Assembly (NCBI GenBank): GCA_900768185.1
Contig: CAAGCB010000012.1
Coordinates: 15,461-79,460, forward strand
Origin: Alphaproteobacteria bacterium
Lineage (GTDB): Bacteria > Pseudomonadota > Alphaproteobacteria > CAAGCB01 > CAG-977
Length of the DNA stretch: 64,000 nucleotides
Reading direction: 5' to 3'
Position numbers and translations under genes: made by a program. Shown here piece by piece: positions 49,201-54,209 of the stretch. Numbering within the stretch: position 1 is the first letter of the stretch; the number at the start of each line of letters is the position of its first letter. The notes under the pieces were generated by a model, which saw nothing but the letters and a program-made list of their open reading frames with translations, did no database searches and was not told the origin of the DNA.

Positions 49201-49241
49201 AAATCATGCGCGGGGAGTTATCGCGTCATGGCAAGTTTTGA
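46209..49241 (+). pseudogene. MmeI-family type IIL restriction-modification enzyme (endonuclease + gamma-class N6-adenine MTase + TRD) interrupted by one in-frame TAG at 47010-47012
   Basis: N-terminal PD-ExK motif GAPDF...GFAEAK; MTase motif I ILDPATGTGTFL and motif IV LGNPPYNG; the ORF track splits it into 46209-47012 and 47103-49241, which are in the same frame (both coordinates divisible by 3), so a single stop codon separates them. Confidence 0.65.
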
Positions 49242-49922
49242 CACCAACTGATCAATGTTCGGGGATCGGGTTTCGCAAACCGCCTTTTCATTATGGCTGT
49301 TTTTCGTCGCCGTGCGAATGGAAACGGGAATCGGTTTCGAACGCAGAGAGTCCAATAATTCCGATGTCGGAGCTTTTTTCTTGCCGAACAGGGAACGGAC
49401 GGCGTTTTTGACGTGGAATTTAACCATTTCCGCGCGCCGTTTTGCCAACATCACGCGTTTTTTCAACGCCAGACCGAACGGCGTCATGCCGATCGCGCCT
49501 TTGGGGGCGTCGGGAACGTTCGCCGCCTGCAAAATCGCCGTCGCGACGGTTGAGCAGTTTTTTTCAAACAGTTTGTACGTTCCGGGGTTTTTACGCAAAT
49601 CCTCGACCATTTCGCGCGCGGCGTCGTACTGGTGTTTCGAAATGCGCCAGACGATCGCTTCGTTGTGCGGCGTGTAGTGGTCTTCGGGGACAAAACAGCC
49701 CTTGACGCCGGTGACGGCTTCGATCAGCGTGCCGCCGTCGGGACCGTAGCCCCAGCGTTCTTCGTTGTCGCCGTCGGAAAGCCCGATATAGGCGTGTCCC
49801 GTAATCGCCGTGCTGTCGCACCCCAAATGTTTTTTCGGATCGACCCACGGAGCAAGCATCGGTTGCGGCGTATCAAGATAAAGGGTGATTTTATAAGGGC
49901 TTTTGGATAAATCCGCAGTCAT
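49218..49922 (-). CDS. Permuted papain-fold (YiiX/YaeF/LRAT-like) putative hydrolase, paralog A
   Basis: Ordered His (ITGHAYIGL) then Cys (FEKNCSTVA) ~80 aa apart, as in permuted NlpC/P60-type enzymes; ~55 percent identical to 53490-54209. Confidence 0.45.
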   Translation of the reverse strand: MTADLSKSPYKITLYLDTPQPMLAPWVDPKKHLGCDSTAITGHAYIGLSDGDNEERWGYGPDGGTLIEAVTGVKGCFVPEDHYTPHNEAIVWRISKHQYDAAREMVEDLRKNPGTYKLFEKNCSTVATAILQAANVPDAPKGAIGMTPFGLALKKRVMLAKRRAEMVKFHVKNAVRSLFGKKKAPTSELLDSLRSKPIPVSIRTATKNSHNEKAVCETRSPNIDQLVSKLAMTR

Positions 49923-50156
49923 GAAAAATCTTTCCGTTGTTATTTTCGGAAATTATAGCAAAAAAATTTGTCGAAAACCAGACTTGTTTTACAAAAAAAC
50001 TCCGCAAACGAAAAAATAAAAAAAGCCCCCGGCAAAGCGATCGGAAAAAAACGATATGAAACCTTCTGAAAAAACACAAAACAATTATACACGCTTTTGT
50101 TCGCCGTGTAATAAAAACGGGGCGGAAAAATCCGTCCCGTTTGTCTGAAAATTTTG

Positions 50157-51911
50157 TCAGCAACCGCCCGTGAACGGCGGGGGCGGCGTTGTCGTGGCTT
50201 TGTCATAGGTGACGGTTGACATCGTTCCCGACGCCGTGGCTTTTTTGCACACGCCGCCCAGTTTCAGCCGCGCGCCCGACGAAACGGTCATGTCTTTGCC
50301 GTAACCGTACAGGTATCCCGCCCCCAAAATGGCGGAAGACGCGCTCATCGACTGGCTGTCGCCGTTGATCAGCACTTTGCCCGATCCCGCAATCGATTCG
50401 ATCGTCGAATTGATTTTCAGCGTGCCGCCGACCATGCTCAATATCGTGTCGCCCGTGCTGTGGAGATATTCCGTTTCGGGGTTTCTGTCAAAACCTTTCA
50501 GTGTTACGGGCGCGTTGATCGTCACGGAATTGACGCTGTCTGAATATGTCTCGTGCGAATCAATCGCCGAACAGGAACTGCTGCCCGTCGAACGGTAGCA
50601 TTCGATCGTCGTCGAACCGTTGATGACGATGTCGCCGTGTGTCTGGCTCAGCCCCGAAAAATACGTTTTGATGACGTTGCCGTTCGCGTTCAGCTTGATG
50701 ACCGCCTTGCCCGTCGTGATGTAGCCGATGGCAGAGCTGGCGTAGTCGTCGAAAACGACGGCGCCGTCCGCGATGAACGACGCGCCGTTCGCGACGTCGA
50801 CGCCGACGAATACTTTGGGCATGTTCACGTGCAAAGCCCCCGAAGATGACACTTTCGCCGTCGTGTTTTGTCCGACGGACAGTCCGTAGTCGCTGTATCC
50901 GTTCAGCGTTGCCGTTCCCGCAATGTTCAGCGTTCCGCCGTTCGTCGCTAAAACGGCGGAATCGGCATAGTTGTTGCCGTCGGCGGTGACGGACGTCAGC
51001 GAAACCGTTCCCGACAGCGTCATCGCGCCCGTCGCCGCGACGACGTTTTTAGCCTGTTCCGCCGTGACGGTTGAATCTTTAATCGTTCCCGATCCCGATA
51101 CGACGGTGGCGGACGTGTTGCCGTACGGGAAAGAAATGTTGACGCCGTTGATTTCGCCGCCGGACAGGGTGATCGCCGTTGATACGGACGCGGGTCCGAC
51201 TGTCAGCGTCGGCGTTTGTTCCGCGGCGCACAAGGCGATGTCGGAAAAATACTTCGGTCCGACCAGCTTTTTCGATCCCAGTGCGATTTGTTGAGATGTC
51301 GAAACGGCGCCGTCAATCAAAATGACGGATTTTCCGGACGACAACGCTTCTGAAAACGACACGCTGTCGGTCGCGACGGCGACGTTTGAATTTTTAGCGG
51401 CGACTTGGGCGGCGCATGTCGGCGGTTCGACGCAGGATTTGCCGTCGTCCGAAACGACGTAGGGTGAAACGCACGCCGTGCATTGCGACGCGTTTAAACA
51501 TTCGATGCAGTTTTCAATCACCGTCGCGCAGTCATAGCAGGCGTTGCCTTCTTTGAAATATCGGGGGACGGGGCAGGATATGTCGCTTGACCCGTCGCAG
51601 GTCGCGTATTGCGGGCATGTGTTGCATGTGTTGTTGTACAGGTAAAATCCGGATTTGCATTGCGAACACGTCCCCGTCGTTTTGTCGCAAACGGCGCAAT
51701 TCGAATCGCAGGGGATTTCCTTTTGGTATTCCGTCTGCGCGCCGTACGATTGTCCGCCGTTGATCGTGTAGGATTTGCCGCGCCCCAGCTTCATCGCACG
51801 CGCCAGCTGAAAAGACGAAGCGTCGTCAAAACCGATTGATTGAACCGGCGACGGCGCGGCGGCGAACAGGAATGCGAAACACATTCCGAAAGTCGAAATT
51901 TTCTTAATCAT
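50157..51911 (-). CDS. Secreted cysteine-rich repeat protein with Ser/Thr/Gly-rich beta-strand-like C-terminal half (candidate surface adhesin)
   Basis: Signal peptide MIKKISTFGMCFAFLFAAAPSPVQS; ~30 Cys within residues 60-170 in CxxC spacing; C-terminal 350 aa of short TVS/TAT/GS repeats. Confidence 0.5.
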   Translation of the reverse strand: MIKKISTFGMCFAFLFAAAPSPVQSIGFDDASSFQLARAMKLGRGKSYTINGGQSYGAQTEYQKEIPCDSNCAVCDKTTGTCSQCKSGFYLYNNTCNTCPQYATCDGSSDISCPVPRYFKEGNACYDCATVIENCIECLNASQCTACVSPYVVSDDGKSCVEPPTCAAQVAAKNSNVAVATDSVSFSEALSSGKSVILIDGAVSTSQQIALGSKKLVGPKYFSDIALCAAEQTPTLTVGPASVSTAITLSGGEINGVNISFPYGNTSATVVSGSGTIKDSTVTAEQAKNVVAATGAMTLSGTVSLTSVTADGNNYADSAVLATNGGTLNIAGTATLNGYSDYGLSVGQNTTAKVSSSGALHVNMPKVFVGVDVANGASFIADGAVVFDDYASSAIGYITTGKAVIKLNANGNVIKTYFSGLSQTHGDIVINGSTTIECYRSTGSSSCSAIDSHETYSDSVNSVTINAPVTLKGFDRNPETEYLHSTGDTILSMVGGTLKINSTIESIAGSGKVLINGDSQSMSASSAILGAGYLYGYGKDMTVSSGARLKLGGVCKKATASGTMSTVTYDKATTTPPPPFTGGC

Positions 51912-52132
51912 GGCACCCTCCTATAAAATATCCGTTTTCTTTAACGCAACCGCACGGAAAAAACTTGCGCCGTTCCGGATAAAACGGCGTTCCCGCACAC
52001 GCCGCTCACAGTAAGAGCTTTCTACGGATCCGCGCCCGCCAAGGCGCTGTCGCGAACGAACGATTCATTTGCAACTATAAGACAGATTACGGAATTTTTC
52101 GATCAAACGCAATCGCGAAAACAACGAACGAA

Positions 52133-53020: not shown

Positions 53021-53120
53021 ATCAAATCCTTATAAATTATATATTCAATAGCTATTTTACATATAATAAAAAGCGGCGTATAAGAAAAGCAAAATCGTCC
53101 ACGCGGAAAAGGAGATTAAG

Positions 53121-53429
53121 ATGAGCATTTTTGAAGCGATTATGTTGATTTGTTTCGGGGCCAGCTGGCCTGCCGCCGTGTATAAAACGTACACGACCAA
53201 AAACGTCGAAAGCAAAAGCCTGCTGTTCATGTCCTTGATTATTCTGGGATATCTGGCGGGTATGGCGCATAAATTTTTCAACAATTTTGATTTTGTGTTC
53301 TGGTTGTATGTCGCCAATCTGGCTTTGGTGATGTGCGATTTGATTTTGTATTTCAAATACAAGGAAAAACCCGCCAAAGCGGAGACCGCAATCATTCCCC
53401 TTGAAGCGGATCTTCCCGCGGCGGAGTAA
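53121..53429 (+). CDS. Small three-helix membrane protein with PQ-loop-like motif (SemiSWEET/MtN3-like)
   Basis: 102 aa, three predicted TM helices; WPAAVYKTYTTKNVESKS resembles the PQ-loop consensus. Confidence 0.4.
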   Translation: MSIFEAIMLICFGASWPAAVYKTYTTKNVESKSLLFMSLIILGYLAGMAHKFFNNFDFVFWLYVANLALVMCDLILYFKYKEKPAKAETAIIPLEADLPAAE

Positions 53430-53489
53430 GAGGTTCCCCCCGCCCCCTCATCCTTGTATGAAAACGACGGTTTAATCAACCGCCGTTTT

Positions 53490-54209
53490 TTATTCTTTTG
53501 TAAACGCCAGTTTCGCCGTAATCGCCTTGACATCCAAAGGATGCAGCTGCTTGCACGTCGATTTGGCGCGGTAATCCTTTGTGCCGATACGGATAGGCAC
53601 GGGAACGGGTTTGGAGCGCAGAGATTCCAGCAGTTCCGACGTCGGCGCGCGTTTTTTGCCGAACAGCGTGTGCAAAACGTTTTTGGCTTTGAATTTCAGC
53701 ACTTCCATCCGGCGTTTCGCCAGCATGACGCGTTTTTTCAAAACCAAACCGTACGGGGTCAGCCCCAATTTACCCCGAGGAATATCCTCGACTTTCGCCG
53801 CGTTCAAAACATCAACCGCAAAAGTCGAACAGTTGCGTTCAAACAGTTTGTACGTCCCCGGATTTTTTTGTTGTTTTTTAATTTCCCGTTTGGCGGCTTT
53901 ATACTGCTTTTTGCTGATTTTCCAAACGATTGCTTCGTTGTAATAATCTTGATTGTCGTGAGGGATGACAACGCCGTCGACGCCCGAAATCATTTTGGAC
54001 ATCTTGCCTTCGCCCGTATAGCCGAAGCGCGTTTCGCATCCTTTTTCATCGGTCAGTCCGATAAACGCATGCCCCGTGATTTCCGCAGGGTCGGGCGCGC
54101 CGTACACAAACAAGCTTGCCAGCTGGTTATGTTTTATAAAGTCCTTGAACGGACGCAGAAGCGGCTTCGGCGTATCCAGATAAAGCGTGATTTGGCAGTC
54201 TTTTTCCAT
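53490..54209 (-). CDS. Permuted papain-fold (YiiX/YaeF/LRAT-like) putative hydrolase, paralog B
   Basis: ITGHAFIGL ... FERNCSTFA; paralog of 49218-49922. Confidence 0.45.
   Translation of the reverse strand: MEKDCQITLYLDTPKPLLRPFKDFIKHNQLASLFVYGAPDPAEITGHAFIGLTDEKGCETRFGYTGEGKMSKMISGVDGVVIPHDNQDYYNEAIVWKISKKQYKAAKREIKKQQKNPGTYKLFERNCSTFAVDVLNAAKVEDIPRGKLGLTPYGLVLKKRVMLAKRRMEVLKFKAKNVLHTLFGKKRAPTSELLESLRSKPVPVPIRIGTKDYRAKSTCKQLHPLDVKAITAKLAFTKE

Follow-up and report, generated by a model that had tools for sequence, protein, structure and literature searches.

The 64,000-nucleotide stretch of alphaproteobacterial contig CAAGCB010000012.1 analyzed here (the window) carries, downstream of the lysyl-tRNA synthetase gene lysS, two paralogous genes, which we call parA and parB, with three other genes between them. 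Our best overall explanation, to which we would give roughly an even chance, is that the Par proteins are cytosolic Cys-His-Glu enzymes, that their genes are old paralogs, and that the locus holding them is a mosaic. The two genes are listed below with verified codon coordinates; catalytic residues are numbered as in ParB unless ParA is named.

49218-49922, minus strand: parA, an open reading frame (ORF) of 234 amino acids; His43 at 49794-49796, Glu54 at 49761-49763, Asn122-Cys123 at 49554-49559
53490-54209, minus strand: parB, an ORF of 239 amino acids; His47 at 54069-54071, Glu59 at 54033-54035, Gln102 at 53904-53906, Asn126-Cys127 at 53829-53834

Predicted catalytic domain of the Par proteins

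An earlier note on this DNA had described two same-strand ORFs of about 235 amino acids at these positions, and both are present. The paralogy that it claimed is borne out, at an identity below its estimate of about 55%: end-to-end alignment by BLASTP gives 121 identical residues of 235 (51%), with 69% positives and an E value of 4e-83. At the DNA level the genes are approximately 70-74% identical in coding sequence only, and they are the sole par copies in the window. The ordered His/Cys pair (GHAxIGL...NCSTxA) that the note had pointed out occurs in each protein, as TGHAFIGL (His47) and RNCSTFA (Cys127) in ParB and as TGHAYIGL (His43) and KNCSTVA (Cys123) in ParA, and both share the basic C-terminal half (LKKRVMLAKRR...LFGKK.APTSELL.SLRSKP.PV), which is kept across the family. 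The note had proposed checking the pair in homologs: His47 and Cys127 are invariant in all 53 members of our family alignment, where the invariant residues also include Thr8, Tyr10, Gly46, Gly51, Glu59, Ala93, Gln102, Tyr120, Asn126, Leu197, and Pro201. The ratio of nonsynonymous to synonymous substitution rates of parA and parB relative to their orthologs is approximately 0.14, indicating purifying selection, and hence both genes are kept by selection. Orthologs of parA are found at 91% in locus L018 and near-identical in L053 and L054 (L numbers denote related loci), and a promoter-like site (10/12) lies upstream of parA at 50112-50084.

The AlphaFold2 model of ParB (predicted local distance difference test score [pLDDT] 89.6, predicted template modeling score 0.88) comprises a papain-like catalytic domain (residues ~1-150) and a polybasic helical C-terminal module (~151-239). 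Strand 47-53 carries His47, the long strand that follows (59-66) carries Glu59, and Cys127 is in the first turn of helix 127-137. This order of elements is that of a circularly permuted papain/NlpC-P60 domain: a conserved His-bearing strand comes before the Cys-bearing helix, and a third polar residue, Glu59, 12 residues after His47, sits on the adjacent strand. The top Foldseek matches in the PDB, which are weak (E ~0.1, probability 0.8), are chains of the Aichivirus 2A H-box/NC protein. In BFVD the top matches (E 0.003-1.1) comprise 2A regions from kobuviruses and other picornaviruses, together with a C92 YaeF/YiiX protein and a phage "cysteine peptidase."

Among Pfam models the best match of ParB is Peptidase_C97/PPPDE (E 2.9e-4, 21.1 bits against a cut-off of 29.2; ParA scores 17.5 bits). 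ParA and ParB each reach 17.3 bits with Lnb_N (PF13387, cut-off 22.2), and ParB reaches 16.2 bits with TseH (PF25218, cut-off 27). Across the family, Lnb_N is matched by 33 of the 53 members (E <= 0.01), C97 by nine, and TseH by two, and the Lnb_N cut-off is passed by two of the five relatives scanned individually (P0014 with 30.6 bits and P0044 with 24.9 bits). No family member matched the NLPC_P60 or CHAP models, none of the 53 matched PF05708 (C92) or PF04970 (LRAT), and there was no NCBIfam match to C92. Searches of NCBIfam, PADLOC, and PHROGS returned nothing for ParA, ParB, or two proteins encoded between them, a Cys-rich protein and the small membrane protein PQ. Direct sequence search of ParB against the PDB gave only noise (ribosomal protein eS25). 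The family profile does touch the catalytic-Cys motif of the DeSI/PPPDE structures 2WP7 and 3EBQ, and a profile built from 116 remote homologs, in which the Cys is invariant and the His at least 90% conserved, matches TseH (PDB 6V98, E 2e-4), PPPDE structures, and, weakly, RID, the Rho-inactivation domain of MARTX toxins (5XN7).

The invariant His-then-Cys pair, the predicted structure, the weak fold matches, and the sub-threshold Pfam matches agree at superfamily level with the permuted papain/NlpC-P60-type thiol enzyme of the earlier note, and with good confidence we assign the Par proteins to this family and fold. Glu59 would be the third catalytic residue. The narrower YiiX/YaeF and LRAT assignments of that note found no profile match in the 53 members, Lnb_N, TseH, and PPPDE being nearer. 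Within the known permuted NlpC/P60 superfamily Par is an unnamed, new family, since the curated cut-offs of every named family tested were failed and the C-terminal domain has no detectable relatives. PF27349 appears as a precomputed domain on three distant Par members; this newer entry may already include part of the Par family.

Family distribution, polybasic module, and proposed function

A search of 5.8 billion proteins recovered 76 Par clusters at 90% identity, none with an informative name, and all clusters with a taxon label come from alphaproteobacterial metagenome-assembled genomes (MAGs). In 185,579 genomes, one per species, we found 52 par loci, all in gut or rumen Alphaproteobacteria MAGs (e.g., "Acetobacter sp. 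CAG:977" and several UBA, HGM, and RUG bins), with one to five copies per MAG. Clustering of the neighboring ORFs of these 52 loci recognized six conserved housekeeping neighborhoods:

1: after lysS
2: tpiA-secG-kdsA-eno-PAR-ftsB
3: pheS-pheT-esterase-x-PAR-sufE
4: GGDEF/EAL gene, then GNAT gene, then PAR with a 200-amino-acid ORF
5: pepF-PAR
6: PAR-nadE

The clades of a neighbor-joining tree track these neighborhoods. ParB falls among the proteins encoded at the lysS site of L001-L003, whereas ParA groups with L018 and has the nadE-position clade as its sister; because the tree puts them in different clades, parA and parB are old paralogs rather than products of a recent duplication. Neither plasmids and phages (tblastn) nor IMG/VR viral contigs (scan) yielded any par copy. 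A role in defense, considered because a restriction-modification gene adjoins, was rejected, there being no PADLOC match and the other par copies lying in housekeeping neighborhoods.

Two side observations concern the family. In the GNAT neighborhood (L055 10001-11301; also L026, L027, and L036) the par stop codon overlaps the start of the 200-amino-acid ORF, which has no Pfam match and whose motif FCGVYA...GDHWSV resembles a classical, non-permuted papain-like Cys/His enzyme; from this arrangement the two genes may form a translationally coupled two-enzyme pair. Assembly CAVCSV01 (L003, L023, L028), labeled "Limosilactobacillus gorillae," has contigs with the alphaproteobacterial lysS-parB neighborhood and further par paralogs, and is probably mislabeled or chimeric.

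The C-terminal module of about 90 residues is modeled as four helices and a short strand (pLDDT > 90) packed on the catalytic domain. Across the 53 members its net charge runs from +10 to +19, with +15 as the median, and the N-terminal part is approximately neutral. An alignment-based profile of the module alone detected no relative in the PDB at E values up to 10, and in the large profile search it was seen only in family members and gene fragments. Signal peptides, lipoboxes, transmembrane segments, and cell-wall-binding domains are absent from all 53 members, and mean Kyte-Doolittle hydropathy, taken over 19 residues, peaks at 0.6-0.9, with no hydrophobic segment. An amphipathic membrane helix at residues 152-182 was entertained and found unsupported, the hydrophobic moment being 0.15-0.33.

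We propose that Par is a cytosolic acyl-transfer or hydrolase thiol enzyme docked on a polyanionic surface. The Cys127 thiolate, at the N-terminus of its helix and directly after Asn126, would attack an ester or amide carbonyl to give an acyl-thioester; His47 on the preceding beta-strand would serve as general base; and Glu59 on the neighboring strand would orient His47, like Glu81 in TseH. Water would then release the acyl group if the enzyme is an amidase or deacylase, and an amine or hydroxyl would accept it if the enzyme is an acyltransferase. The helical module, with its charge of about +15, would dock the enzyme on a polyanion, the favored site being the cytoplasmic face of the inner membrane, and several non-redundant copies would be maintained per genome at fixed housekeeping positions. 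That the chemistry is directed at acyl lipids or membranes we suggest only tentatively, by analogy: membrane-lipid or membrane-proximal substrates are favored because Lnb_N is the commonest Pfam match, because of where the C92 and LRAT relatives act, and because RID and Lfat1 provide a precedent. The permuted cluster II families C92 and LRAT have been described as acting on lipids or at the membrane-water interface (PMC10318531).

Of these systems, Lnb (PF13387, formerly DUF4105), the lipoprotein N-acyltransferase of Bacteroides, is an NlpC/P60-like protein with His and Cys that forms or uses acyl intermediates, and its Cys is essential (10.1101/2024.05.31.596883). The Par match covers only about 45 of the 175 profile positions, however, and the catalytic domain of Lnb is periplasmic and belongs to a polytopic membrane protein, whereas Par is soluble, lacks transmembrane segments, and uses a Glu. 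The lysine fatty acyltransferases RID (of MARTX toxins), Lfat1, and IcsB are likewise papain-like with His before Cys, couple the catalytic domain to a separate targeting module, and have a nucleophile motif, Y-x-L-x-x-K-N-C/A-S-S-x-V-A-x-x-L-K-A-G-G, that recalls that of Par; the similarity to RID is nonsignificant (E 0.4-1), RID has no residue on the third core beta-strand, and RID and its relatives are delivered into eukaryotic cells. LRAT/PLAAT (H-rev107) and picornavirus 2A H-box/NC proteins (7ZV1, 7ZV6), which supply the best Foldseek match in the PDB, have an H-box followed by an invariant Asn-Cys and, as we propose for Par, a C-terminal region that targets the enzyme. The 12-residue spacing from the first His to the third residue in Par equals that of His23 and His35 in PLAAT3. 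That third residue is nevertheless a His there and a Glu in Par, the targeting region is a hydrophobic membrane anchor there and a soluble polybasic module in Par, and the LRAT model is matched by only two of the 116 remote homologs. YiiX/YaeF (C92, PF05708) is of the same permuted NlpC/P60 class and gave one fold match in BFVD (E 1.1), but its match to Par is weaker than those of Lnb_N, TseH, or PPPDE.

Par could instead be a cytosolic PPPDE/DeSI-type peptidase or isopeptidase acting on protein substrates or conjugates, with lipids excluded, an alternative that we think unlikely. PPPDE/DeSI proteins (PF05903) share the permuted papain fold with His before Cys; C97 is the best Pfam match of ParB; the motif Y-x-L-F-x-x-N-C-x-T-F of Par aligns with the catalytic-Cys motif of 2WP7 and 3EBQ (Y-x-L-F-E-x-N-C-x-T-F at the nucleophile); and Par proteins are predicted to be cytosolic and soluble. 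However, the C97 score falls short of its cut-off and Lnb_N matches are commoner in the family. PPPDE proteins are deubiquitinases and deSUMOylases from eukaryotes or viruses; they use a Cys-His dyad, to which the invariant Glu59 is foreign, and have no counterpart of the polybasic C-terminal module. No ubiquitin-like conjugation genes were seen in the annotated neighborhoods.

The remote homologs raise a different alternative. Of 1.84 billion representatives, only nine proteins matched the family profile at E <= 1e-30 and 398 at E <= 1e-3, and the approximately 390 beyond the family match just positions ~40-150, the catalytic core. Many of these core matches form the extreme C-terminus of very long proteins with Rhs repeats by Pfam (P0154, P0196, P0213, P0223, and P0197; in P0154 the match spans residues 1681-1775 of 1823). 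The 116 shorter ones include matches to eCIS_core (DUF4157; 13), Lnb_N (16), C97 (12), LRAT (2), and PAAR (1), and name look-ups for 20 remote homologs gave just "hypothetical protein" and one "DUF4157 domain-containing protein." Because these matches end Rhs, extracellular contractile injection system (eCIS), and PAAR proteins, the catalytic core appears to be a widely used tip of polymorphic toxins or effectors; in the lineage of the window the same core is a small stand-alone protein.

Par proteins might accordingly be exported effectors or toxins that reach competitors or host cells as cargo of a type VI (T6SS) or type IV secretion system or of an eCIS, with the basic module serving delivery or target localization. 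The relative with a solved structure that is nearest by profile is TseH, a T6SS effector of Vibrio cholerae belonging to the NlpC/P60 family, with a Glu81-His64-Cys172 triad (10.1101/2024.05.31.596883) and an activity termed "enigmatic" (10.1101/2024.05.09.593423). It has the permuted fold and the order His-Glu-Cys (His64/Glu81/Cys172, against His47/Glu59/Cys127 in Par), and its Pfam model is weakly matched by ParB. TseH-like domains also occur in Legionella Dot/Icm effectors, including Lfat1, a RID-related lysine fatty acyltransferase; the missing signal peptide is what one-step secretion predicts; and a dispersed multi-copy family looks like an effector repertoire. TseH differs from Par in that His and Glu are 17 residues apart in TseH and 12 in Par, and Par, unlike TseH, occurs as one to five chromosomal paralogs per MAG and has the polybasic module, which TseH presumably lacks because the module has no detectable relatives outside Par. 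Against export, the annotated par loci, of whose neighbors only some were scanned, showed no adjacent gene for a T6SS or other secretion apparatus, an adaptor, VgrG, PAAR, or an immunity-like protein. The genes occupy fixed housekeeping positions and are vertically conserved, the C-terminal region is predicted to be folded onto the catalytic domain rather than to form a disordered signal tail, and PADLOC and PHROGS have no matches. On this balance we consider export quite unlikely.

We regard it as highly improbable that Par proteins are classical NlpC/P60 peptidoglycan hydrolases. Their superfamily membership would allow it, as TseH is classed as an NlpC/P60 cysteine endopeptidase, a family with known peptidoglycan degraders, and a gene for a VanX-like D-Ala-D-Ala dipeptidase separates lysS from the par gene(s) in L012 and L013. 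It is opposed by the lack, in all 53 members, of any signal for export, membrane anchoring, or cell-wall binding, and by the unmatched NLPC_P60 and CHAP models.

Several observations weigh against the proposal of a cytosolic, membrane-docked acyl enzyme itself. The Par proteins of the window fall below every Pfam cut-off, and the Pfam matches span just the roughly 45-residue Cys motif. In the hidden Markov model alignment Glu81 of TseH is two residues off from Glu59, whose place in a triad is our inference. The occurrence of remote homologs at toxin tips points to an exported-effector role. With its low hydrophobic moment the long helix is not a membrane anchor of the classical amphipathic kind, the charge of the module would suit nucleic acid or some other polyanion equally well, and no consistent functional theme emerges across the par gene neighborhoods.

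Variable locus downstream of lysS and its genes

The interval between parA and parB is 3567 bp long and holds three genes. The further features of the locus are:

46209-49241, plus strand: Type IIG restriction-methyltransferase gene (PADLOC REase_MTase_IIG, E 6e-238 and 2.5e-66)
50157-51911, minus strand: gene for the Cys-rich protein, a 584-amino-acid ORF
52133-53020, minus strand: gene for a LysR-type regulator of 295 amino acids (HTH_1, E 2.9e-19, 69.2 bits; LysR_substrate, E 1.3e-27, 97 bits; both above cut-offs)
53036-53067, no strand: candidate LysR operator, an AT-rich imperfect palindrome (inverted repeat) in the spacer between LysR and PQ
53121-53429, plus strand: gene for the membrane protein PQ, 102 amino acids with three predicted transmembrane segments
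54240-54603, minus strand: c21 remnant, a frameshifted 165-amino-acid gene with no Pfam match, in two tblastn segments in different frames, 95% and ~70% identical
54717-56309, minus strand: lysS, class I lysyl-tRNA synthetase (Pfam tRNA-synt_1f, E 2e-137; NCBIfam NF001968, 851 bits)

The lysS gene is the conserved anchor of a variable locus, and in 15 or more of the related loci a par gene sits next to it. Beyond it, gene order differs among relatives:

L001, L002: lysS, c21, parB, PQ, LysR
L003: lysS, c21, parB, then a restriction-modification gene
L010: lysS, c21, parB (homology to the window stops at the parB stop codon)
L029: lysS, c21, parB, then an FAD-oxidase-like gene
L013, L014: Cys-rich, PAR, PAR
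L016, L017: lysS, Cys-rich, parA-like gene
L018: lysS, PQ, LysR, Cys-rich fragment, PAR, parA
L053, L054 (near-identical strains): gene order as in the window between LysR (L053: PQ) and the restriction-modification gene, both loci ending before parB

In L003, L029, and L010 the site lacks PQ, LysR, the Cys-rich gene, and parA, and homology to these "empty" genomes stops exactly at the parB stop codon (53488-53490). The c21 gene is intact between lysS and parB in L001-L003; in the window the 5' part of its copy has diverged or been lost. The block from 54602 to 52089 (c21 remnant, parB, PQ, and LysR) is 97.9% identical to L001 and L002, whereas lysS (54726-56303) is only 91% identical, and this jump suggests a recent recombinational exchange of the 2.5-kb block between lineages. 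In L001 the final 154 bp of parB recur just beyond PQ and LysR (5413-5823; compared with L003 10567-10720). This duplicate runs in frame into about the first 75 codons of an FAD-oxidase-like gene, which is truncated there, and looks like a scar of homology-facilitated illegitimate recombination.

At its other end, the variable region is bounded in this strain by the Type IIG gene, which is convergent with parA and overlaps its 3' end by 24 bp. A TGG-to-TAG change at 47010-47012 splits this gene into two ORFs; the allele of L053, with 96.5% DNA identity, is intact and encodes 1029 amino acids, so the enzyme is probably inactivated in this strain, barring sequencing error. On the upstream side of lysS in another genome (L057, 1-5358) lies a Type I restriction-modification operon of hsdM, hsdS, and hsdR with an embedded gene for a 500-amino-acid reverse transcriptase (RVT_1), which fits the lysS surroundings being a hot spot for defense and variable genes.

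To the earlier note, the duplication and the bracketed genes had suggested a modular unit, possibly mobile or duplicated. Such a reading, in the style of a composite element, could appeal to the two same-strand paralogs around 3.57 kb that includes a regulator, to the 97.9% block set against 91% in lysS, to the 154-bp duplicate of the parB 3' end in L001, and to the lower GC content over parB and PQ. We nevertheless give it almost no credence. The paralogs are only 51% identical in protein and about 70-74% in DNA and belong to different, old clades tied to conserved neighborhoods. No terminal repeats, target duplications, transposase, or integrase were found at the parA-parB region, where the only repeat is the coding-sequence similarity itself, and no copy was detected on plasmids, phages, or viral contigs. 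In other relatives one finds parB alone, parB with PQ and LysR, the Cys-rich gene with two par genes, or lysS, PQ, and LysR ahead of two par genes, and Cys-rich family members also occur without a par gene (L057, L059, L060). The same bracket, which the note had suggested seeking in other genomes, turned up in matching order just in the near-identical L053 and L054, both of which end before parB.

That the bracket is not a mobile unit is our very firm conclusion. We read it instead as a mosaic particular to this strain, located where recombination is frequent, and not as a functional unit either. We propose that parB would be the resident of the site downstream of lysS, that parA would have come in on an accessory segment together with the gene for the Cys-rich surface protein, and that PQ and LysR would be an independent regulator-plus-transporter module inserted right after the parB stop codon. 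What stands of the modular idea is that the site is recombination-prone and that, as read from the compared gene orders, PQ and LysR form a self-contained pair of genes, present in some relatives and absent from others; the bracketed unit as a whole does not stand. Terminator-like hairpins after lysS, LysR, and the Cys-rich gene, together with the promoter-like site ahead of parA, suggest, as weak sequence evidence, separate transcription units.

The LysR regulator of the earlier note is upheld by its two domains; NCBIfam LysR families are matched, none at the equivalog cut-off. The gene for PQ is divergent from that for LysR across a 100-bp AT-rich spacer, and the two are paired in L001, L002, and L018; such a layout is typical of LysR regulators and their divergent targets, and PQ may thus be a target gene of LysR. 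Its description as SemiSWEET-like holds in part: PQ has a single three-segment architecture of the PQ-loop type and some homologs carry PF04193, but its own score (E 1e-3, 19.2 bits) is below the cut-off of 22, and comparison with PDB sequences gave no match to solved SemiSWEETs. Homologs of PQ form 122 clusters across phyla, with identities reaching 60-70% and with PF04193 on 20 of the 120 listed. Some are 55-70% identical in such distant phyla as Melainabacteria/Gastranaerophilales, Lentisphaerota, and Victivallaceae, a conservation that, judged by sequence, is unusually high for an unnamed membrane protein of 85-100 amino acids.

The Cys-rich protein, which the note had called secreted, does begin with a hydrophobic stretch that resembles a signal sequence, and 13 or more of its Cys residues are invariant. 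Its family comprises 32 clusters, none named, with a Pfam domain in just one, distant cluster. In the AlphaFold2 model (pLDDT 85), residues ~70-165 resemble the furin-like repeats Fu1-Fu2 of R-spondin (Foldseek probability ~1.0, E 0.05), and the rest is an all-beta body, probably a solenoid, with weak Foldseek matches to Ag43, SRRP, and pectate-lyase solenoids. We read it from this model as a secreted surface or adhesin-like protein. Cys555 and the extreme C-terminal Cys584 (motif PF..GC-COOH) are invariant in the family and possibly form a capping disulfide. Paralogs lie directly after lpxC-ftsZ (L059 and L060, 8001-9900), and the copy at the lysS site of L057 abuts an lpxB-lpxD-bamA cluster; these positions hint at a cell-envelope theme. 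An obligatory pairing with par was rejected, there being no par gene after lysS in L057 or after lpxC in L059 and L060. In L058 the Cys-rich gene is followed by a 244-amino-acid gene that matches par by size alone.

Elsewhere in the window, a tRNA-Ala(CGC) gene (6861-6936, plus strand) is the sole tRNA and the sole Rfam match at the gathering threshold.

Implications

The arrangement of paralogs around cargo here is that of a variable chromosomal locus beside lysS, which corrects its reading as a mobile element. The core of the Par proteins ties genes in housekeeping locations to the tips of Rhs, PAAR, and eCIS toxins and to TseH, and a soluble, easily expressed Par relative could aid in finding the role of the branch of the superfamily that contains TseH. 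As a speculation with little chance of proving right in full, Par would be an unrecognized class of soluble, polybasic-tailed Cys-His-Glu acyltransferases domesticated from Rhs, eCIS, and T6SS toxin domains, each paralog acylating or deacylating a different membrane lipid or protein lysine, in the bacterium or, via unrecognized export, in a target cell. If true, this would be a bacterial counterpart of the chemistry of PLAAT, RID, and Lfat1 in an uncultured gut lineage.

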